This document shows positions 17,501 to 42,759 of a DNA stretch of 64,000 nucleotides, piece after piece. The stretch spans positions 2,212 to 66,211 of the forward strand of contig CALFAM010000153.1 in assembly GCA_937948815.1 (NCBI GenBank). Direction: 5' to 3'. Each line of letters begins with the position of its first letter. The stretch's first letter is position 1. The notes under the pieces were generated by a model. The model had not been told where the DNA came from and searched no databases. It saw nothing but the letters and a program-made list of their open reading frames with translations. Source of the stretch: an uncultured bacterium. GTDB lineage: Bacteria; Acidobacteriota; Thermoanaerobaculia; Multivoradales; J023. A program made the translations under genes and the position numbers.

Positions 17501-21693
<4,193 letters not shown>

Positions 21694-21706
21694 AAATGCG
21701 AGGTAT

Positions 21707-22135: not shown

Positions 22136-22507
22136 GGAACCTCCTCGTTGAAAGTTGTTATCGGTGTGCGTCAGAGAAGATGGGAGACGAAGCACGGAGG
22201 ATCTTCGAGCGAAGCATCACGCGCTGCGGCTGCGCTCGGAAATCCAGTAGGACCTTCTTTCCACGCGAAAGTTCTCGGAGGGCATCGAAAATCTTCTCGC
22301 GAGTGGCGTGGTTTTTCGATAGTGAGATGTGCTGTGGCGAACATGCGTTTATTGAAGGTTTTTCAATGGCCAAGCTGGGAAACCATCGATCAGGCTGATA
22401 GCATGGTAACAGTGTTCAATAGGGACGAGAGGGATCCGACTCGTCGATAAAACTTGCTGGTAACGATGCGGGGCCTCCTGGTCCTCGCGCACGGCGGAGG
22501 TGTGCCG

Positions 22508-25500: not shown

Positions 25501-26053
25501 GGGCTTCATGCGTTTCGACTGGCAGGCCATCGCACGCTTCTTCCCGGCGCTCTACGAAGCGCCTTGGGCGAGTCGGCTCGTCGAAGCCGTCGCGGTCACG
25601 GAGCAGCCCTCGGCGTTCCTCGGTGAGCTTCGCGCGGCGCCCGCTTCCGAGCAGATCAGCCTGGTGATTCGACAGCTTCAGCATCGTGTCGCGGAAGTGA
25701 TGGGGATGGAGGGACCCAAGCTGCCACCAACTCACAAGAAGCTGTTCGACATGGGGGTCGACTCCCTGATGTCGATTGAGCTGAAGGGGCGCCTGCAGGC
25801 GGATTTCGAGGCGGAGATTCCGATCACGGCGGTCTTCAACTATCCGACCATCGATGCGCTCGGGGGCTACGTGGCGAGCCAGGTTCTCGGGCTCGATCAG
25901 CCCGACGAGAGCGAAGGTGGCGTGGTGAGCGCTGCGGAGGACGTCGGGGCAGTGGACGCGGCGCTCAAACACGTCCATGAGATATCGGACGAGGAAGTCG
26001 ACCGATTGCTAGCAGCCAAGACCGCCGAGCTCACCCATCAATCGCAGCATTGA
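22508..26053 (+). CDS. Type I PKS, second part of module 2: luciferase-like monooxygenase (LLM) domain, C-terminal half of a degenerate DH-like fold, KR, ACP
   Basis: ATG 22508 has GGAGG 7 nt upstream; the ORF-track start 22454 is rejected.
- LLM: FSIMFFSA...AVWVPERHF...NPIRIAEEWSMVDNLSAGRVGLSFASGWNPTDF (natural-product LLM type, ~22.5-23.5 kb)
- ~23.6-24.04 kb: a DH second-hotdog-like segment with LDPALLETCAEAAQ in place of HPxLLDxxxQ
- KR: YLVTGGLWGVG, YAAASGFLD
- ACP: MGVDSLMSIEL. Confidence 0.9.
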   Translation: MIRFSIMFFSANAETLGDDKYRLVVDAATFADQHAFEAVWVPERHFGLLGGLYPNPSVLQSALAVATDRIALRAGSVVSPLHNPIRIAEEWSMVDNLSAGRVGLSFASGWNPTDFALAPERYERRRDLLYEDLETVQRLWRGEAIEVTKGGGASTTVEIYPKPVQDELPVWITAARSPETFERAGTLGVNVLTHLLDQDVSGLAEKITIYRDALAAAGHDSRAGRVTTMLHTFVQPDEAVARDVARDPYCAFLKSNIPLLKGLAESRDQTVDLDALSPVEQDDFVRFLYQRFASARALIGSPESCLPLVASLQEIGVDEIACLLDFGPSNDDVMCGLPSLHQLATASALELRADAPSEAMPAPVVGVTKTVRDRCDRVLAPDAFARQLAAVGLESARQILPNIALNGAEALAEIEGSPVLHRRKPLDPALLETCAEAAQLVAPEIFEDRAPRLVSHIGALRDVVPDAAIRYLHVVRVEPGQFQVEIRFLDAAERVVGRLGSVRLRKLGRPPVALMAAAGDASSLYYEMAWEVCPAAADRTSVAATGRGWCIVGDRSPLGASLAEALRRTGRSCRLIEPGSLPEFWARQDADRLVGQLSEDAESPSHLVYLPTLDAPVDQATSISSLRQAQAIGPTAALLLMQALVERGGVKAPKLYLVTRAAHAVGEQKVPLSSIQSTLWGLGKTCAMEHPEIWGGLVDLDPKGDEQANTEALLEALLAADGEDQVAFRGGQRFVARLARRRTPHPAAPPVRHDGTYLVTGGLWGVGLEVSRWLLSNGAGALVLVGRSALPPEDTWDSLEPGTRAAELAGALRGLRSNGGDVRYEVLDVTDEPALVALLGQLSETEKPLRGVVHAASVWRDRNGETLIRPILQSDAAALELVFQPKVLGTWLLHQHTKELALDFFCLFSSAASLTGSAGQGSYAAASGFLDTLAHERARLGLPALAINLGPVSDAGFGATSEGLKVHTYWESNGLARVSPPQVLEALGALTQDGSPQAGFMRFDWQAIARFFPALYEAPWASRLVEAVAVTEQPSAFLGELRAAPASEQISLVIRQLQHRVAEVMGMEGPKLPPTHKKLFDMGVDSLMSIELKGRLQADFEAEIPITAVFNYPTIDALGGYVASQVLGLDQPDESEGGVVSAAEDVGAVDAALKHVHEISDEEVDRLLAAKTAELTHQSQH

Positions 26054-26054
26054 C

Positions 26055-29000
26055 ATGAGCAGTACCGAAGCATTCGTACGCGAGCTCACGCAGCTTTCTC
26101 CCAAGCGGTTGCAGCTGCTTTGCCTCGAGATGCGAGAACAGCTCGACGCTGCGGATCGCGATCGGCGGGAACCGATCGCGATCGTCGGCCTCGGTTGCCG
26201 CTTCCCCGGCGGCGTTCGCGACTCCGAGTCGTTCTGGAAGCTGCTTGCCAATGGCGTGGATGCGACCGGCGAGGTTCCAGCCGACCGCTGGGACATGAAC
26301 GGTTTCTACGACACCGATCCGCTCGCGGTCGGCAAGATGTGTACGCGTCGTGGAGGCTTTCTGACCGATATCGATCAGTTTGATCCGACGTTCTTCGACA
26401 TCACGCCGCGAGAAGCCGAGAACATCGACCCGCAGCAACGTTTGCTTCTCGAGGTCACCTGGGAAGCGCTGGAGCACGCGGGTCAGGTGCCTTCGCAGTG
26501 GGGCAGTCGGCGCGTCGGTGTCTATGTCGGGATCACCCTCGAAGACTATGCGCGGGTGCAGATGCGCACCAACGACCCGACCTCGATCAATGCCTACACC
26601 GGCACGGGTATGACCACCAGCGTGGCGGCTGGTCGCCTCAGCTACGTCTTGGGATTCCAGGGACCGAGCTTTGCGCTGAACACCGCGTGCTCGTCGTCGT
26701 TGGTCACGGTTCATCTTGCCGCGCAGAGCCTGCGTCGCGGCGAATGCGAGATGGCGGTTGCCGGCGGCGTCAACCTCATGCTCTCTCCGGATTCGAGCAT
26801 TTTCCTGAGCGCGGCGCAGGCGCTCTCGCCGGACGGGCTGTGCAAAACCTTCGACGCCCGTGCCGATGGCTACTCGCGGGCCGAAGGCTGCGGCATGGTC
26901 GTGCTGAAGCGCCTTCGTGACGCGATCGCGGATGGTGATCGCGTGCTCGCGACGATTCGCGGTTCGGCGATCAACCACGACGGCCACAGCAGTGGGCTGA
27001 CCGTGCCGTACGGCCCTGCGCAGGTAGCGGTGATTCGGACTGCCCTCGAAGACGGCGGCGTGCGGCCGGACGAGATCAGCTACATCGAAGCGCACGGAAC
27101 GGGCACACCCCTCGGTGATCCGATCGAGGTGCAGTCCCTGGCCGAAGTCATGGGCGCGGGTCGCACGGCCGAGAATCCCCTCGTGCTCGGCTCGGTCAAG
27201 ACGAACTTCGGCCACGCTGAATCTGCGGCGGGAATTGCCGGCTTGATCAAAGTCGTTCTGGCCATGCAGCATCGCGAGCTGCCGCCTCACCTTCATTTCG
27301 AGCAACCCAATCCGCATCTTGGTCTGGATGAGGCGTCGTTTCGCATCCAGACGTCGCTCGCGCCCTGGCAGCCGGCGGGCGATCGCCGCTTGGCTGGCGT
27401 GAGCTCGTTTGGACTGAGTGGAACCAACGCTCATGTCGTGCTCGAAGAAGCGCCCGCGCGCCCTCGCCCGACGCGTGAGCGCCGCCGGCCCCAGCATCTC
27501 TTTCTCCTCTCCGCGGCCCGTCCCGAAATCTTGCCACGCATGGCGGAGCGTGCTGCCGACCACATCGAGCGTCACGACGAGATCGACGTCGGCGATGCCT
27601 GCTTCACGGCCAGCACCGGGCGCACCCACTTCGATCACCGTTTCGCTGCGGCAGTGAGCTCGCGCGATGCGTTGGTCCAGAGCCTTCGCCGTGTCGCGGC
27701 TGGAGAACCTGCGCCGCGGACCTGGCATCGTGCGGTCGACGCGCTCGAGGCTCCGCGAATCGCCTTCCTGTTCACCGGCCAGGGCGCCCAGCGCAAGGAC
27801 ATGGGGCGCCAGCTCTTCGACACGCAGCCGACGTTTCGGCGCACACTCGAGCGTTGCGACGAGATCCTGTCGCCGCTGTTGGGCCAGTCGATGCTGTCGG
27901 TGCTGTATGCGGCCGATGGGGGCGCGGATGAAGGTGCCAGCCGAATCCACGAGACAGCGTTGGCACAGCCGGCGCTCTTTGCCGTCGAATATGCCCTTGC
28001 CGAGATGCTCGGGTCTTGGGGGGTGAGGCCAGCTGCGCTCCTGGGCCACAGTGTTGGCGAGTATGTCGCCGCCTGTGTGGCAGGTGTTTTTTCGCTCGAA
28101 GATGCCTTGCGCATCCTTGCCGAACGTGGGCGCTTGATGCAGGCCCTCGAGGGCGACGGCGCGATGGTCAATGTCTTCGTACCGGAGGCGACGGCGCGGC
28201 AAGCGATCGAAGGCCACCGAGAGCATGTGTCGATTGCGGCGATCAACGGTCCGGCGAGCACGGTGCTCTCCGGTGACCGCGCGGTACTCCAGGCAGTCGT
28301 CGGGGCGTTTGGTGATCGCCATCGCTGGCTCGAGGTCTCCCACGCCTTTCATTCACCTCAGGTCGAGCCGATGCTCGACGCGTTCGAGCGGCTGCTTGCC
28401 ACCATCGACCTGTCGGCTCCGGCCATTCCCCTGATCTCCAACCTCACCGGCCGCGTGGTCGAGCCCGAAGAGATCGTTCAGCCGTCGTATTGGCGTCAGC
28501 ACGTCCGTTCGCCCGTGCGCTTCATGGACGGCATCGCGAGCTTGCATGTCCACCGCTGCACGACCTTTCTCGAGCTGGGCCCGAGCCCGGTCTTGCTCGG
28601 GTTGGGTCGACGGTGCCCGGGCGCGGATGCGGCGGCCTGGCTACCGACCTTGCGCCCGGCCAAGACCGACTGGGATCAGATACTCGAAAGCGTCGCTCAG
28701 CTGCACACTGCCGGTGTCGAGATCGACTGGCAAGCGTTCGATCGTGACGAACCGAGTCGCCGGGTTTCGTTGCCGTCCTACCCATGGAAGCGGCGTCGGT
28801 TTTGGTTGCGCGGCGCCGTCCCCATTTCTCGCCTCGAAATCGGGATGGAGCCGGCCCTGGATCACGCACGCGCCCATCCGGACGAACCGTCAACCGAAAC
28901 GGCGTCGGGCGAGCATTCCGAGCCGGCACCGAGCTTGTACTACGAGATCGTCTGGGAAAAGTCTGAGCTCCCAGCGCACGGTCAAGGGCTGCTGGAGGGA

Positions 29001-30935
29001 CCTTCGTGGCTCGTTCTCGGCGACGCGGACGGCCTCGGGCCGAAGCTCGTGAAGGCGCTCGACGCTCAGGGCGCTCACGCCGTCTGCGAGCCTCTCTTCG
29101 AGGGGACAACTAACGGCGCCTTGACGACGCGGCAAGCGCTCGAACAGCATCTCCGCGCCTCGGTCGAACGCCATGTTCGACCCTCCGAGAGCGGGTCCCG
29201 TTGCCAGCATGTCGTCTATCTCGGCGCACTGGAGGCAAGTCTCAGCCCGCCGTCCCGCACGGCGTCGGTGGCATCGGGAGATCCCTACGCGGCGCTGGCA
29301 GGCGCGATCGTGCTGCTGCAGCGTCTCGCCGCGGAACGTCTCGACCCCGCGCCACGCCTGTGGGTCGTGACATCTGGCGCCCAGGCGGTTGCCGCCGAAG
29401 CTCGCGGCCTCGAGCCACTCCAGTCGACGTTGTGGGGCCTGGGCCGCACCTGTGCCTTCGAACGCCCCGATCTCTGGGGCGGTCTCGTCGACCTGGATCC
29501 CGTGGAGCGTGGCACCGGTGCGGCGCAGCGCCTGGCAGCATCCTTACGGGCGGGTGACAAGGAAGATCAGGTCGGATTCAGGGGGGACGAGCGCTACGTC
29601 GCGCGTGTCCTTCGCGCCCCGATGCCCGAGCCCGAAGCGGAAGAGAGCAAAGCCGAGTCGCTCGAGATTCGGTCCGATGGCGATTACCTGATCACCGGCG
29701 GGCTCAAAGGTCTCGGATACGAGGTCGCACGCTGGCTGGTCGACCGCGGGGCGCGTTTCCTCACCCTGCTCGGCCGAAGCAAGCTGCCAGAACGGAGTAC
29801 CTGGGATCGTTTGACTGACGCGAACCCACGCTGGGTCGATGCGATCGGCCGTATTCGCGCACTCGAGGAAGCAGGTGCCAGTGTCGAGTATGCCTCTGTC
29901 GATATTGGCGACGAGGCTCGGGTTCGCGCCTACCTTGCCCAGCGCGCTCACGACGGCCGGCCGCCCGTGCGAGGCGTCGTGCATGCTGCGGCCGTGTGGG
30001 CGGATGCCGAGGGCCACGGTGTCATCGGACCGTTGGAGCAGATTCAACTGTCCTCGGTCGATGATGTGCTCTCGCCCAAAGTCGAAGGTGGCCGCATTCT
30101 GGAGCGGCTACTGGACCCGAAAGAGGTCGACTTCTTCCTGCTCTTCTCGTCTGTCGCGGCGCTGATGAGCTCCTTCGGGCAGGGTGTTTATGCCGCGGCC
30201 AATGCCTACCTGGACACACTGGCCTGGGATCTCGGTTCCCGCCCCGGTTGCAAGGCCCTGGCGATCAACTTGGGGCCGGTCGCGGACGCTGGGTTTGGGA
30301 TGTCCGAAGAAGGCCTTCGGATCAACAAGGACTTCGAACGACTCGGCATCCGCACCTTGCCGGTCGCGCGCGTGATGGCGGCTCTCGATCATCTTTTCGC
30401 GCAGGACGTGCCGCAGCTCGCGATGGTCGATCTGGAGTGGCAACGCATCCAGCAGGTCTACGGAGGCATGCTCCGCTCACCCTTGACGCGTCATCTCCTA
30501 CCTTCCCAGCCCGATCGTGCCGAAGGCCCTGGACTCCTCGAGCAGCTCGACGAGCGGGAGCCCACGGAGCAGCATGAGTTGGTGTCGACCTGGCTTCAAG
30601 GCGAGATCGTCGTGCTGATGGGTTTCGACGAGTCCGAGACGCCGACCAAGGACCAAGGCTTGTTCAAGATCGGCATGGACTCGCTCTTGGCCGTCGAGCT
30701 GAAGCATCGCATTCGCAACGAGCTCAGGCGGGATTTTCCGATCACGGCTGTCTTCGATCACCCAACCATCGACGAGCTCACATCCTTCCTGCTCATCGAT
30801 GTGCTCGGCCTCGAACCGCAAGGGAACCACGGTGACGCTGGCATCCCAGGTGACGTGGACATCCTGGATCAGATCGACCAGCTGTCCGAGGAAGAGGCAG
30901 AAGCGCTGCTCGCTCAGCAAACCGGAAGCCCTTGA
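26055..30935 (+). CDS. Type I PKS module 3: KS-AT-KR-ACP
   Basis: 1626-aa ORF starting 1 nt after the previous stop.
- KS: NTACSSS / [11 protein letters not shown] / [10 protein letters not shown]
- AT: GHSVGEY plus HAFHS
- KR: [20 protein letters not shown] (no LDD motif)
- ACP: [11 protein letters not shown]
There is a helical N-terminal docking-like segment. Confidence 0.95.
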
Positions 30936-30938
30936 GGC

Positions 30939-33900
30939 ATGGACGCCTACGCCAAGAAGATCGCCGGATACTCGAAGGCGCACCTTTCGCTCCTGTGCCT
31001 GGAGCTAAAGAAGCGACTCGACGCCGCCGAGGGTGCAGCCACCGAACCGATCGCGATCGTTGGCATGAGCTGCCGGTTTCCGGGCGGTGCAAACAGTCCC
31101 GATGCGTACTGGCAGCTTCTGCGTCAAGGTCGAGACGCGATCGCGCCGATTCCCGAGGGGCGCTGGGATCAGGATAGCTACTACGATGCCGATCCCGACG
31201 CCACCGGCAAGATGTACTGCCAGTACGGAGGTTTCCTGGACGAGCTGGATGGTTTCGAGCCCCAGCTCTTCAACATCTCACCTCGCGAAGCGTCGAGCCT
31301 CGATCCGCAGCACCGCATCCTGCTGGAGCTCACGTGGGAGGCTCTCGAGGACGCCGGCCAGGATCCGACCTCGTTGCGCGGCACCCGCACGGGTGTCTTT
31401 GTGGGTTTCGGCAGCGACGACTTCACCAAGAACCAGCTACTCGATCTCCCTCCCGAGCGTTTCGATATCTACCTCGGCACCGGTGGTGGCTATTGCTACG
31501 GCGGCGGCCGCCTCTCGCATACCTTGGGGCTCAATGGCCCCAACGTCTCGCTGGAGACTGCCTGCTCGTCCTCGCTGGTCGCACTGCACCTCGCCTGCCA
31601 GAGCCTGCGGATGGGCGAGTGCCCGCAAGCGATTGCTGGTGGCGTGCACCTGTGGATGTCGCCGGTGGGTGGAATCTTTCTTTCGAAAGTCCGTGCACTC
31701 GCTCCCGATGGCCGCTGCAAGACGTTCGATTCTCGAGCCGATGGATTCGTACGGGGCGAGGGTGGCGGTGTCGTGGTCCTCAAGCGACTTTCGGATGCGA
31801 AGCGAGACGGTGATCAGATCCACGCCGTTATTCGTGCATCGGCGATCAATCACGACGGTCCATCGAGTGCGCTGACTGTCCCCTACGGCCCCGCACAGCA
31901 GGCCGTCATCGAGACTGCCCTACGACAGGCCAAGGTCCAGCCACACGAGATTGGCTACGTCGAGGCACACGGCACCGGAACACCCCTCGGCGATCCCATC
32001 GAAGTCCGTTCCCTGGCGAAAGTGCTCGGCCGTGCGGCAGGCCGCTCGGCCGACAACCCCTTGGTCATCGGTTCCGTGAAAACCAATTTTGGTCATCTCG
32101 AGGCCGCTGCGGGCATCGCGGGCGTGTTGAAGGTGGTTCTTGCGCTCAAGCGGGAAGTGATTCCGCCGCATCTCCACTTTCGCCAGGCGAACTCGGAGAT
32201 CTGCCTCGAAGATGGTCCCTTCATCGTGCCGACGGAGTCGATCTCGTGGGGCCGGGGAAGCCGCAAGCGTCTGGCTGGTGTGAGCTCCTTCGGCATGAGC
32301 GGGACCAACGCACATGCCATCCTCGAAGAAGCGCCACGAGCCATCGATGGAAACGGGGACTCCGGCCGTCCGGCGCATCTTTTGACCCTGCGCGCCCGCA
32401 GCGAAGCCGCTCTACGGCAGCTCGCCACGCGCTACGCCGACCATCTGTCCGAGCACCCCTCTCTGCCCTTGCAAGATGTCTGCGCGACAGCGAATACCGG
32501 CCGAACGGCGTGGCCGTGGCGCCTGGCGGCCGTTGCCGATTCTGGACGAGAGCTCGGCGAAAAGCTTCGTGCCCTTGCTGCTGATGAGCCATCCCGCGAT
32601 GTCGTACGAGGGCAAGCGGCTCCTCGCCAAGCGCCGAAAGTCGCTTTTCTCTTTCCGGGCCAGGGCGCTCAGCGCGTGGGAATGGGACGGGAGCTCTACG
32701 AAGCCGAGCCAGCATTTCGCCAGGCCATCGACGAGTGCGACGGCTACCTGAGGCCGTACCTCGATCGATCGCTGCCGGCCATGCTTCGTGATGAGGATGC
32801 TCCGCTCGACGAGACGGCGACCACCCAGCCCGTTCTCTTCGCCCTTGGCTACGCGCTGGCTGCCATGTGGCAGCACTGGGGCATTCGCCCCGACGCGGTG
32901 TTGGGGCACAGCGTGGGCGAATACGTTGCCGCCTGTGTCGCCGGTAGCCTGTCGCTCGAAGATGCCGCAACGCTGATCGCGGAGCGCGGCCGCCTGATGC
33001 AAGCCTTGCCTGCGGATGGCGGCATGGTCGCGGTTCTTGCGTCTGCCGAGCAGGTCGAGCCCTTGCTGCGGCCCGTTGCCTCGCAGGTCTCGCTTGCCGC
33101 GGTCAACGGCCCGCGAAGCGTGGTGCTCTCGGGGCTGCGCACTACGCTCGAGCGGCTCTGCCGCGAGCTCGCCGCTCGCACCATCCAGAGCCGCTGGCTG
33201 CCGGTCTCCCACGCCTTCCACTCGCCCCTGATGGATCCGATCCTCGACACCTTCGAGGAGCTGGTTGCGAGCCGAAAGCTCGGCAAGCCCAAGCTGCCAC
33301 TGATCTCGAACCTGAACGGTCGTCCGGTGGATGACGAGATCATGCAGCCCAGCTACTGGCGGCGGCACGCTAGGGAGTGCGTGCGGTTCGCGGATGGTCT
33401 GAGCTGTCTCGCGAATCAGGGTTTCGAGATCTTTCTCGAGTGCGGCCCCGCCTCGACCTTGCTCGGCATGGGGCGGAAGTGTCTGCCCGCGAAAGAGGGC
33501 ACGTGGCTCCCATCGATGCGAGCGGAAGCGCCCTGGCACGGCACGCTCCGCACGCTCGGAGCGCTCTACGCCAAGGGGGCCGACGTCTCCTGGTCTCGAT
33601 TCCACGGTGACGCCTGGCAACGCCGTTCCCTGCCGACCTACCCCTTCGAACGGCGGCGCTACTGGCTCGATCTCGATATGCAACGGCCACAGCCGAAGAT
33701 CGTCCTCGAGCAGGAGGGGCGCCAGGATCCGGAGCTCGGTCCGGTGATCGACGAGCTCTTCTCGGCGTGGGGAGGCGACGGCGTGATGGCGATCAATCGT
33801 CGCGTCACCTCTCCGTGGCTCCTGCTGACACCCGCTCGGAAGAGTCTGTTCTGTTTCAACCAGCGCCGCGAAGCCCTACTGGTCACGAGCTACGTCGGAC

Positions 33901-36900
33901 CACCCGCCGCTCGTGAGAGCTCGATCGAATATCTCCTCCGCTACACGCGCTCGCGAGAGCTAGACCTGACGCTCTTCGTCCACGGCCATCATGCCGAATC
34001 CCTGGCTCGGATGGGCCTTTCGACCACGCCCGTCGGGGTTTGGCAAACGCTCGCCGATACGCGTTCGTTCGACCTTCATGGGGGTCGAATGAAGCGGCTG
34101 CGTTCCAAATTCAATGCGTTCGATCGCACCGGTCAGGGCCGTGTGGACGAATGCCGCGTCGGCGACGATTCCCGGGTCGATCAACAGATCGTCGAGATGA
34201 TCGGCCACTGGGTGAAGCGAAAGGGGCGAAAGGCACCGTTTGTTTCAGAGCTCGAGAGGCAGATTCGATCAGGCGCACTCCATCCTGGGCATCGCCTATT
34301 CCTGGTCTACGCCACCAACGATCTCGAGAGCGTCATCCTCCTGTCGCCGATCCCGCAAAAGAATGGCCATCTCATGGATCTCGAGTTCTACCGTCAAGAT
34401 GTACGCCCTGGAGCGCTCGAGTTCGGCATCGTTCGCATTCTCGAATTGCTTCGGGCTGAAGGCTCGACCTATCTCAGTCTGGGCTCGACCTTCGGAACGC
34501 AGCTCTCCGCGCACGAGAACGAGGACCCCGAGGTCGCCGCTCTCCTGGGTGCCCTGCACGACCAAGGCCTCCTCAACGAAGATGGAAATTTCGAGTTCAA
34601 GAAGAAGTTCGCTCCCGCGATCGAGCCGTTTTACATCAGCCGTCTCAAGGGTGCTGGTACGGCTTCGATCGCGACCGTTCTTGCCATGCTTTCCGGAAAG
34701 GAAGGGGGTGACTTCGACGGCGTGGTTGCTGACCCATCCGATGATTCGCCCAAAGCCCTCGCCCCCCATGCTGACGAGCGCGATCAGAACGCGCTCGAAA
34801 GGGAGACATTTCACCCCTTGCTGGGCAACCGCCTTTCCCTCGCGGTCCGAGATGTGGTCTTTCATGCGGTCCTGAGCACCGATCTTCCCCACCTCGCCTT
34901 TCTCGGCGAACACCGGGTTTTCGAACGGATCGTGCTTCCCGGCGCCGCCTACATCGAGACGGCGCTGGCCGGTGCCGAGCACGTCCTCGGTGCCCGACCC
35001 TGCGTGCTCGAAGATCTGCATCTTCAGGAGGCCCTCGTCCTGCGCGACGAGGAGCGCCTGGACGTTCAAACCATTTTCGCGCGAGATTCCGCCGGGGCCC
35101 TGACCTTCCAAGTCTCCAGCGCTCGGCGCAAGGATGAAAGCGGTGAGTGGATCGTGCACGGGAGTGGCCGGGTCACGTTGACGGAAAGTGCTGAAGCGCT
35201 TGCGGAATCCGCCAAAGAGTCGCTACCCACGTTGCGCGAGCGATGCACGGACAGCGTTGACATCGAGAGCTTCTATCGAGTCGCGAGCACTCATGGGATC
35301 GCGTACGGGCCCTCGTTTCGATGCATCGAGGAGTTGTGGAGTGGTGAGGGTGAAGCACTGGGGCGGGTCGTGCTGCCCGATAGGCTTGCGGAAGCAGGTT
35401 CGCGTTTCGTGGTACATCCGGTGCTCCTCGATGCCTGCCTTCAGTTTCCTGGCATCGCATGGGTGAGCCTTCGGGGAGAGGCCGAGCCGGGAATCAACTA
35501 CCTTCCCTTCCGCCTCGGACGCTTTTGTCAGTATCGCCCATGGTGCCGTGAGCTGTGGAGCCACGTCCGTATCCGACCCGTCGCCGACGAACGACCGGAA
35601 TCTCTGGTCATGGACGTCAGCCTTTTCGATCGGCAGGGGAACCGAGTCGCAGAGCTGAGCGAATTCGCGGCTCGCCGGACCAGTCGCGATGTGATGCGGC
35701 TCCTGCTTCGTGACGACGCTGAAGATCTCTTGTACGAGATGCGTTGGCAGCCCGCAGCACGGCACGCGAAGGGCGAGTCGGACCGCTCAGCAGCCGGCCG
35801 ACGTGACGTGGCGGAAGTGAGAACGCCGGAAGTCGGCGCGTGGCTCGTTACCACGGATACGGATGGGCTTGGCGACCTCGTGGCAGATGCGCTCGCAGCG
35901 CGGGGTGCTGAAGTCGTGGTCGTTCGACCGCCACCGATCGGTGCAAGCTCCGAGTGTCTTGCCGCGGCTGAGGCAGACGACGCAGCGGAGTTTCGAAAGA
36001 TTTTTCGAGAGGCTGCCCGTCAGTCGGCAGATACCACGTTTGGCATTGTCCACTGCTGCAGCTCGAGTGCAGACATCGACTTCGAAAGCGAAAGCCAGTG
36101 GGTGATTCGAGACGCTCAGAACCGAGGCAGTCGACGTCTCCTCGCCATTCTCGACGAGCTGAGCGCTGCAGGCGTTGCGGCCGATGGCGCGAAAGTCTGG
36201 TGTGTCACACGCAATGCGCAGCCCATTCATGGTGGAGCGGTCGACCCGTCGCTCGCACCGCTATGGGGTCTCGGCCGAACGATCGCGCAGGAGCATCCCG
36301 AGCTGTGGGGAGGGATGGTCGATTTGCCACCCACGGCGGGTCGTGAAGAGACGGGACGACTGGCTGGAGAGCTACTCCGTGGCGACGGGGAAGATCATGT
36401 GGCGTTCCGTGGCAACGAGCGTCTCGTGGCGCGTTTGACAGCGTGCGATGCAGCGCAGCCAACCTCTGGATCATTGGCCTTCCGCGCCAATGCGACGTAT
36501 CTCGTCACCGGCGGGCTCGGAGGCCTCGGCTTGACGGTCGCGCGCTGGCTCGTGGACCGCGGTGCCCGCCACCTTGCACTTCTCGGCCGGACCGGAAACG
36601 ACACCGGGACGGCGAGTGCTGATCTTGCGTCCCTTCGAGAGGCCGGCGCGAGCCTGGTCATTCTCAAGGCCGACTGCTCGCAGAAGGATGCGCTCGCCAG
36701 CGCTATCGAAGAGATCCATCAGTCGCAACCGCCGCTACGGGGTGTGTTCCACGCCGCGGGCGTTCTGGCCGACGCTCTCTTGCAGCATCAAACCTGGCCT
36801 CAGTTCCGTGAGGTAATGGCGCCGAAGATCGATGCCTCGTGGCATCTACACTCCCTCACGCGCGACATACCACTCGACTACTTTGTTCTCTTCTCCTCGG

Positions 36901-38930
36901 CAGCGTCGCTGCTCGGGGCCGCCGGGCAAGGGAACTATGCTGCTGCCAACGCCTTCTTGGACGGGCTTGCCCACTACCGTCATGCATTGAATCTACCGGC
37001 GACCACCATCAACTGGGGCCCCTGGAGCGAAGTCGGTATGGCTGCCGCGCTCGGAAGTCAGGTCGAGAGTCAGAAGGCAGAGCGAGGTCTGGGAACCATC
37101 TCACCTGCCGAGGGCTGCCGGATCTTGGAGCAGATCCTGATCAAGAGACCTGCTCAGGTGGGTGTCGTGCGTGCAGACTGGGACCTTCTGCTCCGTTCAC
37201 CGGCTGCTGCGCTGCGTCAGACCTCCTTGTTTCGGGACTGGGACGCGGCACGATCGAATGGGGTTGCTGGGTCCAAGGTCGAAGAATTCGAAGGACTCTC
37301 CGAAGGAAATCGGGTCGAGCGTCTCGGAAATTACCTCACCGAGCAGCTTGCCCGGGTCCTGGGACTCGAGTCGAGCGAAGTTCGTCGGGATGCGCCGCTG
37401 ATGTCGATGGGATTCGACTCGCTGATGGGGCTCGAGCTTCGGGAACAAGTGGAGTCTGATCTGGGGGTGACCCTCCCCATGGTCAACATTCTACGTGGCG
37501 ATCATGTGGATGACTTCGCCCTGCACCTTGCTCGCGCGCTCGAGGGGCCTGCGCCGGGCGACATGCTTTCACCAGCCGGTCGGCCCCCACAAGTGTTATC
37601 GGCCGCGCGGCCGAATGAAGAGCCCGGGCCAGGGCTCTTCGACATCGAGCTATCAGCCTCCTTGGTTCAGCCAGACACGGGACTGACCGTTCGCCTGGCA
37701 CCCGCCGAGTGGCCAGCGAAGAGGCAGTCGGTGCGCGTCGAGGTGTCGCTGACGCTACGAGATGATCAAGGCGACGAGCTGCGACCGATCGGCACTGCCT
37801 CCATCGACCGTCCAGAGGCTCGGGAGTTCCATCTGGATACCCAGATGCTCGAGAACGGCATTTATCTGATCGACTACGTGTTGACGAGTGCGGAGGGAAA
37901 GGTGCTGGTGCAATTGTGGCGCCGCTTTGCCGTTCAGCATGGGGTGAATGCGCGTCTTGCACGCCTTCGAGAGAGACTCGAGCAGGTACCAGAACCAGCG
38001 AACACCGCGAACACCGCGAATGCAGCGCGAGCAACCGTTGCCGAGATCCTCAGCCTGCTGAGTCAGGCGCAAGAGATCTATTTGGCACGCAATGGTGAGA
38101 CGGACACGCCAAAGGCGAGTCAAGCGAGAGGGCTGAACCGACAGCTCAAGACACGCCTTCCATTCGAAGCCGCCGAACAGCTCGACCTCGCCGAGAACAT
38201 CGTCACTGCGCTTCACGACCAAATCGATCCGTTCGAATGCCTGCGTGGCGATCTCCGACTGTCACTCCGTTCGGCGGCCGACGGGGCAATCGTTCCCTAT
38301 CGCCTCTACGTGCCGGACGCATTCGAGCTCGGAGCGTCGTGGCCGCTGGTTATCCTGCTCCATGGAATCCTGGGCGACGAGTGCTCCTTCTTCGAGCTCG
38401 AAAATGGGCAGTGCAAGCGGCTCGCCGAACGCAATAGCTGCATCCTGCTCGCACCGGCCGGACGTGGGCCGGGTGGAAGCCACAACGAGCGAACGAGCTC
38501 GGACCTCTTCGAGATGACGCGGCAGGCGCGAGAGATTCTTCAACTCAGAGAAGCGCCCATCTACCTTGCTGGACACTCGATGGGAAGTGAGTGGGCATGG
38601 AAGATCGGGTTTGGGCATTCCGAGCGCATTGCCGCCCTCGGGCTCATTTCAGGCGTGCCGATCTATGAGGAGGCCGCGGAGCTCGTCGGCCGCTCGCCGA
38701 CCCTGCCCGTGCGCCAGTACCACGGCGTACGGGATCCAATCTCGAAGATCGATGTCGCTCGGCGAATTGCGACACTTGCGGACTCGACCCTGCTCGACTA
38801 CCAGTTCGTGGAGTACGCTGACCGCGCCCATCATGATGTGGCCGAGTTGGCCATGGTCGAGATTTTCGAGTTCTTCGTCATGCATTCCATCAAGGCAACC
38901 CAGACCGCCAAGGAACCCGTCGAGGATTGA
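30939..38930 (+). CDS. Type I PKS module 4 plus release: KS-AT-[DUF2156/MprF-C-like]-DH-KR-ACP-[unknown ~250 aa]-alpha/beta hydrolase
   Basis: 2663-aa ORF.
- KS: ETACSSS / [11 protein letters not shown] / [10 protein letters not shown]
- AT: GHSVGEY plus HAFHS
- ~33.7-34.7 kb DUF2156-like: FDLHGGRMKRLRSKFNAFDRTG, MDLEFYRQDVRPGALEFGIV, NFEFKKKFAPAIEPFYISR
- DH: FHPLLGNRL, LGEHRVFERIVLP, YGPSFRCI, HPVLLDACLQ
- KR: YLVTGGLGGLG, YAAANAFLD
- ACP: MGFDSLMGLEL
- C-terminal hydrolase: PLVILLHG, GHSMGS (38569-38586), HGVRDPI, ADRAHH. Confidence 0.93.
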   Translation: MDAYAKKIAGYSKAHLSLLCLELKKRLDAAEGAATEPIAIVGMSCRFPGGANSPDAYWQLLRQGRDAIAPIPEGRWDQDSYYDADPDATGKMYCQYGGFLDELDGFEPQLFNISPREASSLDPQHRILLELTWEALEDAGQDPTSLRGTRTGVFVGFGSDDFTKNQLLDLPPERFDIYLGTGGGYCYGGGRLSHTLGLNGPNVSLETACSSSLVALHLACQSLRMGECPQAIAGGVHLWMSPVGGIFLSKVRALAPDGRCKTFDSRADGFVRGEGGGVVVLKRLSDAKRDGDQIHAVIRASAINHDGPSSALTVPYGPAQQAVIETALRQAKVQPHEIGYVEAHGTGTPLGDPIEVRSLAKVLGRAAGRSADNPLVIGSVKTNFGHLEAAAGIAGVLKVVLALKREVIPPHLHFRQANSEICLEDGPFIVPTESISWGRGSRKRLAGVSSFGMSGTNAHAILEEAPRAIDGNGDSGRPAHLLTLRARSEAALRQLATRYADHLSEHPSLPLQDVCATANTGRTAWPWRLAAVADSGRELGEKLRALAADEPSRDVVRGQAAPRQAPKVAFLFPGQGAQRVGMGRELYEAEPAFRQAIDECDGYLRPYLDRSLPAMLRDEDAPLDETATTQPVLFALGYALAAMWQHWGIRPDAVLGHSVGEYVAACVAGSLSLEDAATLIAERGRLMQALPADGGMVAVLASAEQVEPLLRPVASQVSLAAVNGPRSVVLSGLRTTLERLCRELAARTIQSRWLPVSHAFHSPLMDPILDTFEELVASRKLGKPKLPLISNLNGRPVDDEIMQPSYWRRHARECVRFADGLSCLANQGFEIFLECGPASTLLGMGRKCLPAKEGTWLPSMRAEAPWHGTLRTLGALYAKGADVSWSRFHGDAWQRRSLPTYPFERRRYWLDLDMQRPQPKIVLEQEGRQDPELGPVIDELFSAWGGDGVMAINRRVTSPWLLLTPARKSLFCFNQRREALLVTSYVGPPAARESSIEYLLRYTRSRELDLTLFVHGHHAESLARMGLSTTPVGVWQTLADTRSFDLHGGRMKRLRSKFNAFDRTGQGRVDECRVGDDSRVDQQIVEMIGHWVKRKGRKAPFVSELERQIRSGALHPGHRLFLVYATNDLESVILLSPIPQKNGHLMDLEFYRQDVRPGALEFGIVRILELLRAEGSTYLSLGSTFGTQLSAHENEDPEVAALLGALHDQGLLNEDGNFEFKKKFAPAIEPFYISRLKGAGTASIATVLAMLSGKEGGDFDGVVADPSDDSPKALAPHADERDQNALERETFHPLLGNRLSLAVRDVVFHAVLSTDLPHLAFLGEHRVFERIVLPGAAYIETALAGAEHVLGARPCVLEDLHLQEALVLRDEERLDVQTIFARDSAGALTFQVSSARRKDESGEWIVHGSGRVTLTESAEALAESAKESLPTLRERCTDSVDIESFYRVASTHGIAYGPSFRCIEELWSGEGEALGRVVLPDRLAEAGSRFVVHPVLLDACLQFPGIAWVSLRGEAEPGINYLPFRLGRFCQYRPWCRELWSHVRIRPVADERPESLVMDVSLFDRQGNRVAELSEFAARRTSRDVMRLLLRDDAEDLLYEMRWQPAARHAKGESDRSAAGRRDVAEVRTPEVGAWLVTTDTDGLGDLVADALAARGAEVVVVRPPPIGASSECLAAAEADDAAEFRKIFREAARQSADTTFGIVHCCSSSADIDFESESQWVIRDAQNRGSRRLLAILDELSAAGVAADGAKVWCVTRNAQPIHGGAVDPSLAPLWGLGRTIAQEHPELWGGMVDLPPTAGREETGRLAGELLRGDGEDHVAFRGNERLVARLTACDAAQPTSGSLAFRANATYLVTGGLGGLGLTVARWLVDRGARHLALLGRTGNDTGTASADLASLREAGASLVILKADCSQKDALASAIEEIHQSQPPLRGVFHAAGVLADALLQHQTWPQFREVMAPKIDASWHLHSLTRDIPLDYFVLFSSAASLLGAAGQGNYAAANAFLDGLAHYRHALNLPATTINWGPWSEVGMAAALGSQVESQKAERGLGTISPAEGCRILEQILIKRPAQVGVVRADWDLLLRSPAAALRQTSLFRDWDAARSNGVAGSKVEEFEGLSEGNRVERLGNYLTEQLARVLGLESSEVRRDAPLMSMGFDSLMGLELREQVESDLGVTLPMVNILRGDHVDDFALHLARALEGPAPGDMLSPAGRPPQVLSAARPNEEPGPGLFDIELSASLVQPDTGLTVRLAPAEWPAKRQSVRVEVSLTLRDDQGDELRPIGTASIDRPEAREFHLDTQMLENGIYLIDYVLTSAEGKVLVQLWRRFAVQHGVNARLARLRERLEQVPEPANTANTANAARATVAEILSLLSQAQEIYLARNGETDTPKASQARGLNRQLKTRLPFEAAEQLDLAENIVTALHDQIDPFECLRGDLRLSLRSAADGAIVPYRLYVPDAFELGASWPLVILLHGILGDECSFFELENGQCKRLAERNSCILLAPAGRGPGGSHNERTSSDLFEMTRQAREILQLREAPIYLAGHSMGSEWAWKIGFGHSERIAALGLISGVPIYEEAAELVGRSPTLPVRQYHGVRDPISKIDVARRIATLADSTLLDYQFVEYADRAHHDVAELAMVEIFEFFVMHSIKATQTAKEPVED

Positions 38931-38934
38931 AACC

Positions 38935-39993
38935 ATGAACGAAGCTCAACTCGCTGCGGAAAGCCGTCTCGAAAAGCACCAAGCGGAGGCGGAAGAGGCC
39001 GAGCCGAAGAAGGCCGGCGAACAGGCAAGTAGCGGGCATTCGCACGCCCGGATCGAAAAGCCCAAGACGCTGCTCGGCAAGGTGCTCTCGGTCGGTGCAT
39101 TTCCATTTGCCCTGACGGCGGTCTTCTGTGGCTACTTCTACGCATTGGAAAAGGGCTACAACCTCGCCGTCTCGATCACGGTGCTCGCCTTTCTGAATCT
39201 CGTGTTCGTCATGTTTCTCGAGAAGATCTTGCCACACACGTATCGTTGGAAGATTCGGTGGCAAGCGCTCAAGACGGACATTCTGCACGTCGTCTTCTCC
39301 GACCGCATCAATTACCTGGTGTTCGAGCTCTTGCTGGGCGGTGTGCTTCTCTGGATATCGCTGAAGGTGTCCGAGCTTTTCAACTACGCACTGTGGCCTT
39401 CGCAGTGGCCGCTTCTGCTGCAACTTCCGTTGACTTGCCTCGTCGCAGAGTTCTTTCACTACTGGTGGCACCGCGCATCGCACGAGTTCGAGTGGATCTG
39501 GAAGTTCCATGCGACCCACCACAGTTCTGAGCACATGTACTTTCTGGCCGCGGCGCGGTTCCATCCCTTCGACAACCTCATGGCCCACGCCGTGCAGATG
39601 TTTCCGCTGGTCGCGCTTGGCGTCCCCAAGGAAACTTTGGCCCTCTACATGCTATTCGTCAGCGTGCAAGGGCCATTTGGGCACGGCAATGTTTCCATTC
39701 GTCTCGGCCCGCTCAACTATCTGTTTGCTGTTGCCGAGGTTCATCGTTGGCATCATTCGCAGAACCTCCAGGATGCGAACTCGAACTACGGGGGTGGAAT
39801 CATCTTTTGGGATCTCGTTTTCGGAACATTCAATCTGCCCAAGGATCGGGAACATCAGCCTGATGATCTCGGCTTGGTCGACATGCCGCGCTTTCCCCAG
39901 AACTATGTGGGTCAGCTGGCGTCACCCTTCCGATGGGGAAAGCTCACCAAAGACGATCCAGAGGGTGGGAAATATCACGGGCGGCGAAGGTAG
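38935..39993 (+). CDS. Fatty acid hydroxylase / sterol desaturase superfamily membrane di-iron enzyme
   Basis: ATG 38935 lies 4 nt after the PKS stop. Multiple TM segments and three His boxes (HYWWHRASH, HATHHSSEH, HRWHHSQ). The ORF-track start 38566 is rejected because it overlaps the PKS. Confidence 0.85.
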   Translation: MNEAQLAAESRLEKHQAEAEEAEPKKAGEQASSGHSHARIEKPKTLLGKVLSVGAFPFALTAVFCGYFYALEKGYNLAVSITVLAFLNLVFVMFLEKILPHTYRWKIRWQALKTDILHVVFSDRINYLVFELLLGGVLLWISLKVSELFNYALWPSQWPLLLQLPLTCLVAEFFHYWWHRASHEFEWIWKFHATHHSSEHMYFLAAARFHPFDNLMAHAVQMFPLVALGVPKETLALYMLFVSVQGPFGHGNVSIRLGPLNYLFAVAEVHRWHHSQNLQDANSNYGGGIIFWDLVFGTFNLPKDREHQPDDLGLVDMPRFPQNYVGQLASPFRWGKLTKDDPEGGKYHGRRR

Positions 39994-40021: not shown

Positions 40022-40852
40022 TCAGGCTTCGCTCGATCTCGGCCCTCGCAACCGGTACGAGAGCACCTTGGAAGGTCTCATGGCCGGGGGAAGATGGCGA
40101 AGGAGACGAAATAGGCCGAGGCGTGGCTCCGACTGTTTGCAGTACTGCCACTCCTCGAGCAGCGCGATGCCTTCTCCCCAGGTTTCGACTTCCCGTCCTC
40201 TGCTCACGCCCCATTGGAAGCGAAGACCCATCGGGCCAACCGTCGGATGAAGTCGGCTGAGCAAGACTTCGAGTGGCGAGATCGCGGTGAAAATAAGCTG
40301 AGAACCCGGAAAGCGGCGATTGAGACTCGAGATGAGCCACCGAACCTGTTGTTCCTCGAGATACATCAGAACGCCTTCGGCGATGAAGACGATCGACTCA
40401 GGCGCGTGACCCTCGAGCGATTTCATCCACGATTCGTCCAAGATCGAAGAGGCAACGAAGGTTCGGCACGGTTCTTCGTCCAACAGCCTTCGGCGTAGGG
40501 AAATGACATCCGTGAAGTCGATGTCGACCCAAGAGGTAGAGCCCTGATGGACGCGCTCGAAGCGTGTATCAAGGCCGCAGCCGAGCGTTACGACCAACGT
40601 CTCGGGCTGCACGGCCAGAGCTTGTTGAAGCAACGAGTCGATCTTCTGTGTACGCAGTGCGATGACCGTGTTGTAGAGATCCTGCTTGGCAAGTCGAGAG
40701 AAGTCGTAATCGATGCGACCAATCAGTTGTACGGCCTTGGCATCGGTCACGATCGGCCGGTCTCGCTCAGATTCGAGCGCCCGGCTGAAGAGCGGAAGGA
40801 GCAGTGTCTCGGAAACGCCCTGCAGATCTGCTTTGTGACCGTTCTCGTTCAT
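40022..40852 (-). CDS. Class I SAM-dependent O-methyltransferase, TcmP / leucine carboxyl methyltransferase family
   Basis: LQGVSETLLLPLFSRALE...VVTLGCGLDTRFERV...WVDIDFTDVISLRRRLL matches the LCM/TcmP pattern. ATG 40852 is preceded by GGAAGGAA. The gene is convergent with the hydroxylase. Confidence 0.8.
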   Translation of the reverse strand: MNENGHKADLQGVSETLLLPLFSRALESERDRPIVTDAKAVQLIGRIDYDFSRLAKQDLYNTVIALRTQKIDSLLQQALAVQPETLVVTLGCGLDTRFERVHQGSTSWVDIDFTDVISLRRRLLDEEPCRTFVASSILDESWMKSLEGHAPESIVFIAEGVLMYLEEQQVRWLISSLNRRFPGSQLIFTAISPLEVLLSRLHPTVGPMGLRFQWGVSRGREVETWGEGIALLEEWQYCKQSEPRLGLFRLLRHLPPAMRPSKVLSYRLRGPRSSEA

Positions 40853-41837
40853 TTCCTTCCTCGTTCCGACGGGGCTGTGCAGGGAAAATTTACGCGGTGC
40901 GCGTAGCGGTTTGGGCGGTGTCCTGCTGAGATGGACGGGAAAGGATGCGGAAGCATTGCGTTTCTCAGGGCGCGACCCGCGGGTGTGCAAGCGCGGCGAG
41001 CGCCTTTGCCTCGACAGTCTATTCTATTCAAAGAACTCGCTTGGGCCAGGCAATGAACGATTCGTGTGCTCTCGCGAGCAGATCCCGACGCTTGAGCGGT
41101 GCGGGCCGGTGCGATGGATCCCCGTTGTTTGGGTTGAGCGACCATTTCGCCGAAGTCGGCATGCCGAGCAACCCGACGCTGGCTTGGGACGGTCGATTCT
41201 CCGCGATGCCGTGCGACTGATGAGCGCGGAGGCCGAAATACCCGCGACTTGGGTTGTGGTGCGAAAACGCGCTATAATTGAAAAGAGGTACATGATGTTC
41301 AGTTGTGTGCCGTGTCCGGGTCGAGATGAATTCATTGAGGTTGTCGTCCGTTGCGAGCACTCGGCTTCTCGCGGTATGGCTTCTTGGTTGACACAGCTCA
41401 GTGCTCGGTGGCCAGTGTCGTGGCAGGGAGTCGCTGCGGACCGTCGCGCTGTTTCTTGACAGAGTGGAAGCCGGAAGCTACTCGAAACGTAGCTTCTAGA
41501 AGAGTCTGAGGTAGCAAGGCATCTTGAGGACAAGGTCGAGTTCCTTGTGATGTCATTCTCGCATTGGCCTACGGTCGGTTTCGAAACGAAGGGCGTATTC
41601 TTCTTCCCATTTAGGGGCCTTCCCGTCTCGGGGTCAGGCGAAAGCGCCCACGTCTTGATCGCAGATCGGCGTTTGCGAGGGGTGCCTTCGTCGTCAAGAG
41701 CGACAATCGCAGGCCAGGTGAATCGAGATGTCTCCGCGCTCCTCGGAGCGCACTCGGCTTGCGCGTGTTTCGTCCGCGCGCGCTCCAATGGCTGAGCTCA
41801 TGATGTCTGCCCCTGGTCTTCCACGAGGCGAAAGATC

Positions 41838-42752: not shown

Positions 42753-42759
42753 GTCGCCC

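Follow-up and report, generated by a model that had tools for sequence, protein, structure and literature searches.

The terminal polyketide synthase (PKS) of a gene cluster from an uncultured acidobacterium (Thermoanaerobaculia; Multivoradales; assembly GCA_937948815.1) contains a complete DUF2156/LPG_synthase_C domain between its acyltransferase (AT) and its dehydratase (DH). The gene lies on a stretch of 64,000 nucleotides of contig CALFAM010000153.1 (positions 2,212 to 66,211), which is referred to as the window; coordinates are those of the window unless another locus is named. The domain has the tandem-GNAT fold of the synthase domains of MprF and related aminoacyl-phosphatidylglycerol synthases (aaPGSs), belongs to the same PF09924 sub-family as the "DUF" of the leinamycin-family PKSs, and occurs in an architecture that appears to be undescribed. 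It is very probably an active enzyme, and we tentatively propose that it adds an amino acid, presented on a tRNA, to the beta-position of the chain tethered to the acyl carrier protein (ACP).

Identity and fold of the domain

The excised insert matches PF09924 with 64 bits (E 1.6e-17; gathering cut-off 27.5; profile positions 32-296 of 298), and the family is detected also in the whole protein (E 4.8e-16, 59.1 bits), where Pfam gives the order AT, PF09924, DH. A search of the Protein Data Bank (PDB) with the single domain sequence returned only synthase domains of MprF, and a profile of 18 PKS-embedded domains matched MprF, LpiA, AlaPGS, and LysPGS over nearly the full length (E 9e-20 to 3e-13) as well as ErdS (E 1e-3). 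The AlphaFold2 model, for which the alignment of the PKS-embedded domains in this 18-sequence profile served as input, consists of two beta-sheet/helix repeats (predicted local distance difference test, pLDDT, 91.6; predicted template modelling score, pTM, 0.89). Among its Foldseek matches in the PDB, the first 17 places are taken without exception by synthase domains of aaPGSs and MprF (E as low as 1e-18; template modelling scores up to 0.73 for the query and 0.79 for the target), followed by Sbb17 and Sba18, which are aminoacyl-tRNA (aa-tRNA)-dependent peptide synthases, and by FemX (E 1e-11 to 1e-10). These results confirm that amino acids (aa) 920-1251 form a complete DUF2156/LPG_synthase_C tandem-GNAT domain; the 380-aa insert between AT and DH comprises this folded domain of ~332 aa and an acidic linker of 39 aa.

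The assignment to PF09924/DUF2156 and the in-line position in the terminal module had been predicted by an earlier reading of the DNA alone (the sequence-only reading), which named a profile search with hmmscan and a structural comparison with MprF as checks; both bear it out. All peptides quoted there are present in the frame of the gene, and the three motifs that it singled out (the alpha(+) helix, the D-L-E-F-Y strand, and FKxKF) are the most conserved of the family. Its delimitation was less exact: the domain is present, but the proposed start at 33680 is out of frame, and the insert is 380 aa long rather than ~340.

With the C-terminal domains of MprF and other aaPGSs (PDB 4v34-36, 5vrv, 6lv0, 7duw), which are the best matches in both sequence and structure, the domain shares the tandem-GNAT fold, the alpha(+) helix, a conserved Asp, and the FKxKFxP motif. 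It differs from them in its low sequence identity (15-18%) and in its presumed acceptor, an ACP-tethered chain instead of a membrane lipid; the gene encodes neither a transmembrane region nor a flippase, and the domain is flanked by the AT and DH of a soluble PKS. The same fold class includes VlmA, DhpH/K, PacB, Orf11/Sbb17/Sba18, FemX, and ErdS/ErgS. They show that secondary metabolism can make use of tRNA chemistry (PMC12945691), but they are discrete enzymes (ErdS is fused to aspartyl-tRNA synthetase) that act on free small molecules or lipids; none of them is an in-line PKS domain. The loading domains of the CurA type also represent the GNAT superfamily inside PKSs, but they are single, N-terminal, and use malonyl-CoA; the window gene has no Pfam match to this type, and its DUF2156 domain consists of two GNATs at an internal position.

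Conservation of the aminoacyl-tRNA side of the fold

Residue conservation was computed over 143 near-full-length copies. Eight positions are invariant (R1055, W1091, R1119, D1147, E1149, G1182, K1221, and K1223), and 42 reach a conservation of at least 85%; the copy of the window retains 37 of these, and its changes are conservative. This points to purifying selection. The conserved blocks are those common to MprF, namely the alpha(+) helix (G..MRRLRY vs. GGKxxxLRQ), the D-L strand with the P-x-G loop, and FKxKFxP. The helix, which aligns with that of MprF, contains at least four Lys or Arg residues in every copy (mean 5.6) and six in the 20-residue stretch of the window copy (aa 1047-1066) that covers GRMKRLRSKFNAFDRTG. 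By our own count, D1147 would be the equivalent of D765 in PaAlaPGS.

The motifs shared with MprF map to the aa-tRNA side of the fold (PMC13534887, PMC8131360, PMC13219428), and the tRNA-facing surface is the most conserved part of MprF (PMC13534887, PMC8131360). The alpha(+) helix is needed for the use of aa-tRNA in aaPGS, ErgS, and ErdS (PMC8913301, PMC13219428, PMC6103681), and ErdS also requires the residues predicted to bind the CCA end (PMC13219428). Because all 143 copies keep the basic helix, the Asp conserved in MprF, and FKxKF, the domain is very probably an active enzyme and not a linker.

That it is instead a non-catalytic relic, serving as a structural spacer between the ketosynthase (KS)-AT part and the reducing domains, is highly improbable. 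Although PKS-embedded copies have no known biochemical activity and the subclade of the window has lost the otherwise conserved R1225 and lacks a partner lyase, eight polar or charged residues are invariant among copies from very different megasynthases and free-standing proteins, and the window copy keeps nearly all of the conserved positions. Moreover, the model is complete and confident, and the genomic partners co-vary with the domain.

Distribution and architectures of PKS-embedded DUF2156 domains

In an exhaustive HMMER search over 1.84 billion cluster representatives, 273 proteins reached E<=1e-3; at E<=1e-30 there were 147 clusters, almost exclusively megasynthases of great length. A word-indexed homologue search gave no match with the insert alone and four matches with the alignment of the class. 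The best 150 representatives were annotated with domain queries from the window, and examples were checked with Pfam; genomic contexts were compiled from 29 genome loci and 80 metagenome loci, plus several exact contexts. Class A (28 near-full-length copies, i.e., the window and 27 other cluster representatives) has the cis-AT layout KS-AT-DUF-DH-ketoreductase (KR)-ACP with no enoylreductase (ER), which is found also in many genome and metagenome loci. Class B (~90 copies) has the trans-AT layout ACP-(ACP)-DUF-PF01212 beta-eliminating lyase, followed by a thioesterase (TE) or the next KS; judged by this domain order, it represents the "DUF-SH" didomain known from leinamycin, guangnanmycin, and weishanmycin. 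Rarer forms comprise KS-(degenerate AT)-DUF-ACP modules and free-standing DUF proteins. In a rough neighbour-joining tree, a long branch separates the PKS family from MprF; the AT-DUF-DH copies branch off as grades at the base of the DUF-SH clade, the internal branches being very short, and their monophyly is not claimed.

The presence of DUF2156 within a PKS as such is already known. A survey of 2013 tabulates LnmJ and relatives as "...CP-CP-DUF2156-PLP3-ABHy" (PMC3870968), and in the leinamycin DUF-SH didomain it is the part called "DUF"; the sequence-only reading was not aware of it as a described type of PKS domain, but an undescribed one it is not. The leinamycin-family DUF (LnmJ, GnmT, WsmR) belongs to the same PF09924 sub-family, with 30-37% identity (E ~1e-50) as measured on proteins of DUF-SH architecture, among which LnmJ is placed by its listed architecture (PMC3870968); it is likewise PKS-embedded and has the same invariant residues. 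In its trans-AT PKSs, it follows one or more ACPs and is fused to a thiocysteine lyase dependent on pyridoxal phosphate (PLP; PF01212), with a TE or KS thereafter. By contrast, the domain of the window is part of a cis-AT PKS, stands before DH-KR-ACP so that a DH follows, has no fused or adjacent lyase, and bears an FKxKF signature of its own. The SH domain is a characterized cysteine/thiocysteine lyase that cleaves the cysteine or thiocysteine adduct at the beta-carbon (PMC8479088); the formation of this adduct from (thio)cysteine by the leinamycin-type DUF is only a proposal (PMC8479088, PMC7618002).

A literature search found no description of the cis-AT KS-AT-DUF-DH-KR-ACP layout or of DUF2156 in cis-AT PKSs, and no assigned product was found for any AT-DUF2156-DH cluster. 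The AT-DUF-DH cis-AT architecture without a fused lyase appears to be undescribed, as do the alternative PLP partners, the free-standing DUF+DH pairs, and the family-wide retention of the donor site of aa-tRNA transferases.

The KS-(degenerate AT)-DUF-ACP modules (P0043, P0051, L017), in which the DUF occupies the place of the AT, would suit a transfer at the carrier thiol or the thioester carbonyl, i.e., aminoacyl loading of the ACP from aa-tRNA or the formation of an N-acyl amino acid from acyl-ACP in the manner of OlsB or N-acyl-amino-acid synthases. GNAT-fold N-acyl amino acid synthases use acyl-ACP, and a gene for an OlsE-like hydroxylase is located directly downstream of the window PKS. 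However, the AT of the window is intact, and the window class has release domains of its own (a reductase (R), esterase, or condensation domain). In class B, the chain passes through further KS modules after DUF-SH, so that the DUF cannot be the releasing enzyme there. We consider a transfer of this kind quite unlikely.

Two trans-AT PKSs of 6.1 kaa (P0002, P0003) carry two DUF2156 domains each, one internal and followed by a lyase-sized gap, the other C-terminal. Free-standing DUF genes occur in an operon with genes for a short-chain dehydrogenase/reductase, an acyl-CoA-ligase-like protein, orf399, DUF, DH, and a membrane-bound O-acyltransferase, which is present in metagenome-assembled genomes (MAGs) of Betaproteobacteria and on many soil contigs (e.g., L112, 6712-13488; L008, L010, L011, L014; soil contigs L072-L114). 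In the betaproteobacterial MAGs, the operon adjoins rpoD/dnaG, and there is no PKS nearby.

The flanking dehydratase

The DH that follows the domain in the window has the catalytic His and the DxxxQ/H motif, and it looks catalytically competent by its motifs. Its HxxxE (HRVFERIVLP) was read correctly in the earlier note but is not a feature of the class: among the DHs that follow a DUF, the last position of HxxxG is occupied by G in 19 of 26 and by E in only 2, and E is found also in 6 of 83 unrelated DHs. HxxxE was therefore rejected as a signature of these DHs, and an aminoacyl leaving group can no longer be tied to an unusual DH, as had been suggested; because the DH is ordinary and complete, no such group is needed as an explanation. 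A DH follows the DUF in all 28 copies of class A, and free-standing DUF genes, too, adjoin a free-standing DH of the PKS type. The activation of a hydroxyl group for elimination has conceptual precedents in the glutamyl-tRNA-dependent LanB dehydratases and the sulfotransferase-TE of CurM, but their folds are unrelated and the normal DH of the window does not need activation, which leaves an analogy only.

Following classical MprF chemistry, as envisaged by the sequence-only reading, the domain would transfer an amino acid from aa-tRNA to a hydroxyl group, either the beta-hydroxyl made by the KR or a hydroxyl from module 4, and the O-aminoacyl ester would be kept or serve as a leaving group for the DH. 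All characterized DUF2156 enzymes esterify an alcohol (phosphatidylglycerol, diacylglycerol, ergosterol, or a hydroxylamine) from aa-tRNA (PMC6103681, PMC8913301, PMC12945691); fold and motifs are retained in the window, the beta-hydroxyl is supplied by the KR, and neighbours such as the OlsE-like hydroxylase are lipid-like. Nevertheless, O-aminoacylation is unlikely. An ester at the beta-hydroxyl would block the ever-present DH, a complete and ordinary DH needs no activated leaving group and its HxxxE is not a class trait, and what the lyase of the homologous DUF-SH modules requires is not an ester but a thioether at the beta-carbon whose amino-acid moiety is free (PMC8479088).

Genomic partners and the subclade of the window

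In eight loci (L002, L003, L004, L013, L018, L021, L025, L028), all from Acidobacteriota (Pyrinomonadaceae, Bryobacteraceae, and Thermoanaerobaculia), the class A PKS is adjoined by a gene for a class-V PLP enzyme (PF00266, E ~1e-40; e.g., L003, 13644-15170), which is usually followed by genes for an S-adenosylmethionine (SAM)-dependent methyltransferase and a cytochrome P450. In P0007, the class-V enzyme is fused to the C terminus of the PKS (aa 2193-2626). Among named families, these partners come nearest to the cysteine desulfurases SufS/CsdA, to SclA (a selenocysteine lyase), and to EgtE (a C-S lyase), in each case below the cut-off; an assignment as selenocysteine lyase or desulfurase was not adopted because the matches are distant. 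Two unrelated PLP families of sulfur amino-acid chemistry thus accompany the DUF in classes A and B, which supports a cysteine-type adduct or a sulfur-transfer logic for most of the family. The products of the acidobacterial clusters with a class-V PLP enzyme and a methyltransferase are predicted to bear a thiol or S-methyl group at C-3.

Neither PF01212 nor PF00266 is present in the window gene or the annotated open reading frames (ORFs) of the window. The window belongs to a myxobacterial subclade (43-48% identity) with a Myxococcota MAG (L027), L031/P0004, L035, L036/L037, and L030/P0005; the nearest relatives are MAGs of Myxococcota. The class-V PLP enzyme is absent from the window, L027, L031, and L035, and also from the clusters of P0009 and P0014. 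Clusters of the subclade share priming by a fatty acyl-AMP ligase (FAAL), a split module with a luciferase-like monooxygenase (LLM)-KR-ACP protein, reductive release by a fused or discrete R domain, and an LCM methyltransferase. The window differs from the others in that its PKS ends in a 240-aa region and an esterase, followed by the OlsE-like hydroxylase. Compared with the lyase-associated copies, the domains of the subclade show the changes Y1056S (9 of 9), Q1219E/V, N1222K/R, loss of R1225, and L1233I/V, three of which lie within the FKxKF motif.

In P0009 (NCBI GCA_018389385.1; L118, CP062698.1) and P0014, the AT-DUF-DH-KR-ACP module is part of a beta-branching line of PKS plus nonribosomal peptide synthetase (NRPS) modules with a hydroxymethylglutaryl synthase (HMGS) cassette. 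In these lines (L118, L119/L120), a free-standing condensation domain and a module of adenylation domain, KR, and peptidyl carrier protein (A-KR-PCP) come after it, and there is no PLP partner.

SelA and a tRNA-Sec-like gene

The window encodes SelA and a canonical tRNA-Sec 5.3-6.9 kb past the stop codon of the PKS (Table 1). The association is closer in L030, whose PKS is a single module (ACP-KS-AT-DUF-DH-KR-ACP-R) with a DUF that is 47% identical to that of the window. Within 40 nt after this PKS lies a gene for a tRNA-Sec-like RNA of 96-99 nt (Rfam tRNA-Sec, 49.2 bits vs. a threshold of 47), which has intact acceptor, D, variable, and T arms and a non-decoding anticodon arm (9-bp stem, 6-nt loop, G in place of U34) that could not be assigned by ARAGORN. 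After it, a small membrane ORF precedes a selA equivalog (546.6 bits vs. a cut-off of 267.9) and genes for a TE, a FAAL, a phosphopantetheinyl transferase, an FMN dehydrogenase, and an MMPL protein, so that genes of the cluster itself lie on both sides of the tRNA and SelA. The SelA of L030 is not a specialized paralogue, because it passes the selA equivalog cut-off and its relatives (63-67%) are found in ordinary selA-selD loci. The only other tRNA genes near DUF loci are a syntenic tRNA-Met in four near-identical betaproteobacterial MAGs and a probable false positive (L016), and a literature search found no paper on SelA or tRNA-Sec in PKS clusters. The link of SelA and tRNA-Sec to the cluster is possible, a real but unproven lead and the sole direct genomic hint of a tRNA-borne donor.

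Proposed function

In the reading that we tentatively prefer, the KS of module 5 would extend the FAAL-primed lipid chain, and KR and DH would yield 3-hydroxy- and then 2-enoyl-ACP. The DUF2156 domain would add an amino acid via a nucleophilic side chain (of the Cys or Sec type) to the beta-carbon of the ACP-bound chain, which would be the step assigned also to the LnmJ DUF; the donor would most likely be an aa-tRNA held in the conserved site formed by GNAT II and the alpha(+) helix. The adduct would probably be retained, because the subclade has no fused or adjacent lyase. The C-terminal esterase would then release an amino-acid-bearing lipid, which the OlsE-like hydroxylase and the LCM methyltransferase may then modify. 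Action at the beta-position of the tethered chain is fairly probable. The case for a tRNA-borne donor is evenly poised; what makes tRNA dependence plausible is the invariance of the donor-side motifs and, in one relative (L030), a nested tRNA and SelA. Taken as a whole, with addition at the beta-position, a tRNA-presented donor, and a retained adduct, the reading is a tentative one.

Several points weigh against it. The lack of a known biochemical activity extends to every PKS-embedded member of the family, and a Michael addition has no chemical need for a tRNA ester. The leinamycin papers do not invoke tRNA, and our literature search found no paper that pairs "cysteinyl-tRNA" with leinamycin or links the PKS "DUF" to tRNA. 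Most loci have no tRNA, aminoacyl-tRNA synthetase (aaRS), or SelA nearby, and SelA is absent from the available DNA of L027, L031, and L035. The nearest relatives of the SelA of L030 occupy ordinary selA-selD contexts, and selA and selC of the window look canonical and lie beyond a LysR gene; in L031, such a gene marks the edge of the cluster. The existence of KS-(AT)-DUF-ACP modules without DH or KR shows that an enoyl acceptor made in cis is not universal, and the FKxKF-motif signature of the window subclade implies that its chemistry or donor may differ from that of the LnmJ DUF. Finally, the basic helix could dock an acidic ACP instead of a tRNA, and the phosphate-binding loop could hold phosphopantetheine; because both features would suit such an ACP equally well, conservation alone is no proof of tRNA use.

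The same addition may proceed without tRNA, with the domain binding an amino acid or a thiol in free form, such as the L-cysteine or L-thiocysteine assumed for the LnmJ DUF, for conjugate addition to 2-enoyl-ACP and the old tRNA site re-used for docking of the ACP and its phosphopantetheine. This is the sole proposal for the family in the literature (PMC8479088, PMC7618002); it agrees with the absence of tRNA and aaRS genes from most loci, with the acidic ACPs, for whose docking the conserved basic helix would be suitable, and with the constant presence of DH and KR in the window class. Yet excised SH domains are functional (PMC8479088), whereas this reaction has never been reconstituted; all donor-side motifs common to aa-tRNA transferases are invariant, and the cluster of L030 encloses a non-decoding tRNA-Sec-like gene together with selA. 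We regard a tRNA-free addition as possible but doubtful.

A more far-reaching version of the tRNA-dependent reading would have all PKS-embedded DUF2156 domains place a chalcogen amino acid in an aa-tRNA-dependent manner. The donor of the subclade would then be built on tRNA-Sec by SelA (Sec-tRNA or a Cys/persulfide analogue), and the product would be a selenium- or sulfur-bearing amino-lipid, which is an improbable outcome.

Assembly line and neighbouring genes

The features of the terminal PKS and its surroundings are listed in Table 1. The assembly line upstream of the gene has the same layout in L027, L031, and L035, including the split module (17497-26053), which consists of a KS-AT-DH protein with two PKS_DH_N matches and an LLM-KR-ACP protein. 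The LLM-KR-ACP protein and the LCM methyltransferase are the only accessory functions common to the window and the related loci.

The terminal PKS of the window ends in neither a TE nor an R domain, whereas all close relatives release their product via a thioester reductase. The ~240-aa region that follows the ACP has no family match in Pfam, and the hydrolase at the C terminus (within 37530-38927) resembles polyhydroxybutyrate (PHB) depolymerases and esterases; it is presumed to be the off-loading domain. The esterase tail has no counterpart in related loci, and neither have the OlsE-like gene, the GT87 gene, and two hypothetical ORFs of the window.

Membrane glycosyltransferases of the GT-C type are encoded just past the methyltransferase of the cluster, GT87 in the window (42424-44277) and PMT_2 in L027 (15357-16874). 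Such genes near the clusters are consistent with an envelope-lipid product and, together with the OlsE-like hydroxylase, hint at an amino-acid-bearing lipid. Farther downstream (55694-60130), a single ORF of 1478 aa joins an AcrB-type transporter of the RND family to an outer-membrane efflux protein (OEP) domain.

Table 1. Features of the window and of the tRNA-Sec region of L030 (aa, positions in the 2663-aa PKS)
Feature	Coordinates	Strand	Basis or remark
Upstream assembly line: FAAL-ACP-KS-AT-DH-ER-KR-ACP; KS-AT-DH; LLM-KR-ACP; KS-AT-KR-ACP	8642..30935	+	Pfam
Terminal PKS gene (2663 aa): KS-AT-DUF2156-DH-KR-ACP-[~240 aa]-alpha/beta-hydrolase	30939..38930	+	ORF list, translation, Pfam
KS, aa 36-414	31044..32180	+	PF00109 and PF02801
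AT, aa 570-863	32646..33527	+	PF00698 (1.2e-65); motifs GHSVGE, HAFHS
End of post-AT linker, YPFERRRYWL, aa 901-910	33639..33668	+	Peptide located in gene frame
DUF2156/LPG_synthase_C tandem-GNAT domain, aa 920-1251	33696..34691	+	Pfam, profile vs. PDB, AlphaFold2, Foldseek
Pfam core of this domain, aa 969-1233	33843..34637	+	PF09924
Quoted peptide FDLHGGRMKRLRSKFNAFDRTG	34068..34133	+	Located in gene frame
Basic alpha(+) helix GRMKRLRSKFNAFDRTG between GNAT I and GNAT II, aa 1049-1065	34083..34133	+	Predicted helix 139-155 of the model
Quoted peptide HLMDLEFY...LGSTF	34368..34493	+	Located in gene frame
MDLEFY strand	34374..34391	+	D1147 and E1149 invariant (143/143); D1147 aligned to the conserved Asp of MprF/aaPGS
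Quoted peptide NFEFKKKFAPAIEPFYISR	34587..34643	+	Located in gene frame
FKKKFAP (family consensus QFKNKFRP; MprF FKxKFxP)	34596..34616	+	K1221 and K1223 invariant; E1219, K1222, and A1225 subclade-specific
Acidic, low-complexity linker to DH (39 aa), aa 1252-1290	34692..34808	+	pLDDT falls at end of model
DH, aa 1292-1584	34809..35690	+	PF21089 and PF14765; HPLL start, HRVFERIVLP, GIAYGPSF, DACLQ
Start of DH, FHPLLGNRL, aa 1291-1299	34809..34835	+	Peptide located in gene frame
KR, aa 1852-2031	36492..37031	+	PF08659 (2.8e-70)
ACP, aa 2132-2197	37332..37529	+	PF00550
C-terminal extension: ~240 aa, then esterase-like alpha/beta-hydrolase (GHSMG)	37530..38927	+	Weak matches to Abhydrolase and polyhydroxyalkanoate (PHA) depolymerase
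Fatty-acid-hydroxylase-family gene, right after PKS stop	38935..39993	+	Best named family OlsE (ornithine-lipid hydroxylase), 167 bits, below the cut-off of 475
LCM-family SAM methyltransferase	40022..40990	-	Kept in L027, L031, L035
SelA (L-seryl-tRNA(Sec) selenium transferase)	44265..45683	-	PF03841; NCBIfam selA 530.7 bits vs. cut-off 267.9
tRNA-Sec (UCA), canonical, divergent from selA	45874..45972	+	ARAGORN; fold
tRNA-Sec-like gene of L030 (L030 coordinates)	9572-9667		
selA of L030 (L030 coordinates)	10296-11825		

Significance

For about twenty years, the "DUF" has stayed a black box, and its role in making the C-S bond of the leinamycin family is still called proposed (PMC8479088, PMC7618002). 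An MprF-like fold with invariant donor motifs, a second, cis-AT architecture with desulfurase-like or SelA/tRNA partners, and the DUF+DH pairs turn this into a testable question. For genome mining, AT-DUF2156-DH is the marker of a rare family, with ~28 clusters at 50% identity among the 1.84 billion representatives, whose members come from lipid-like clusters with FAAL priming in Myxococcota and Acidobacteriota as well as from a single genome cluster of the HMGS-cassette PKS/NRPS type. If the dependence on tRNA is true, the domain would be the first in-line PKS domain to draw on the translation machinery and a possible route to selenium-containing polyketides; if the chalcogen/tRNA reading is true, it would provide the leinamycin family's missing chemistry of C-S bond formation.

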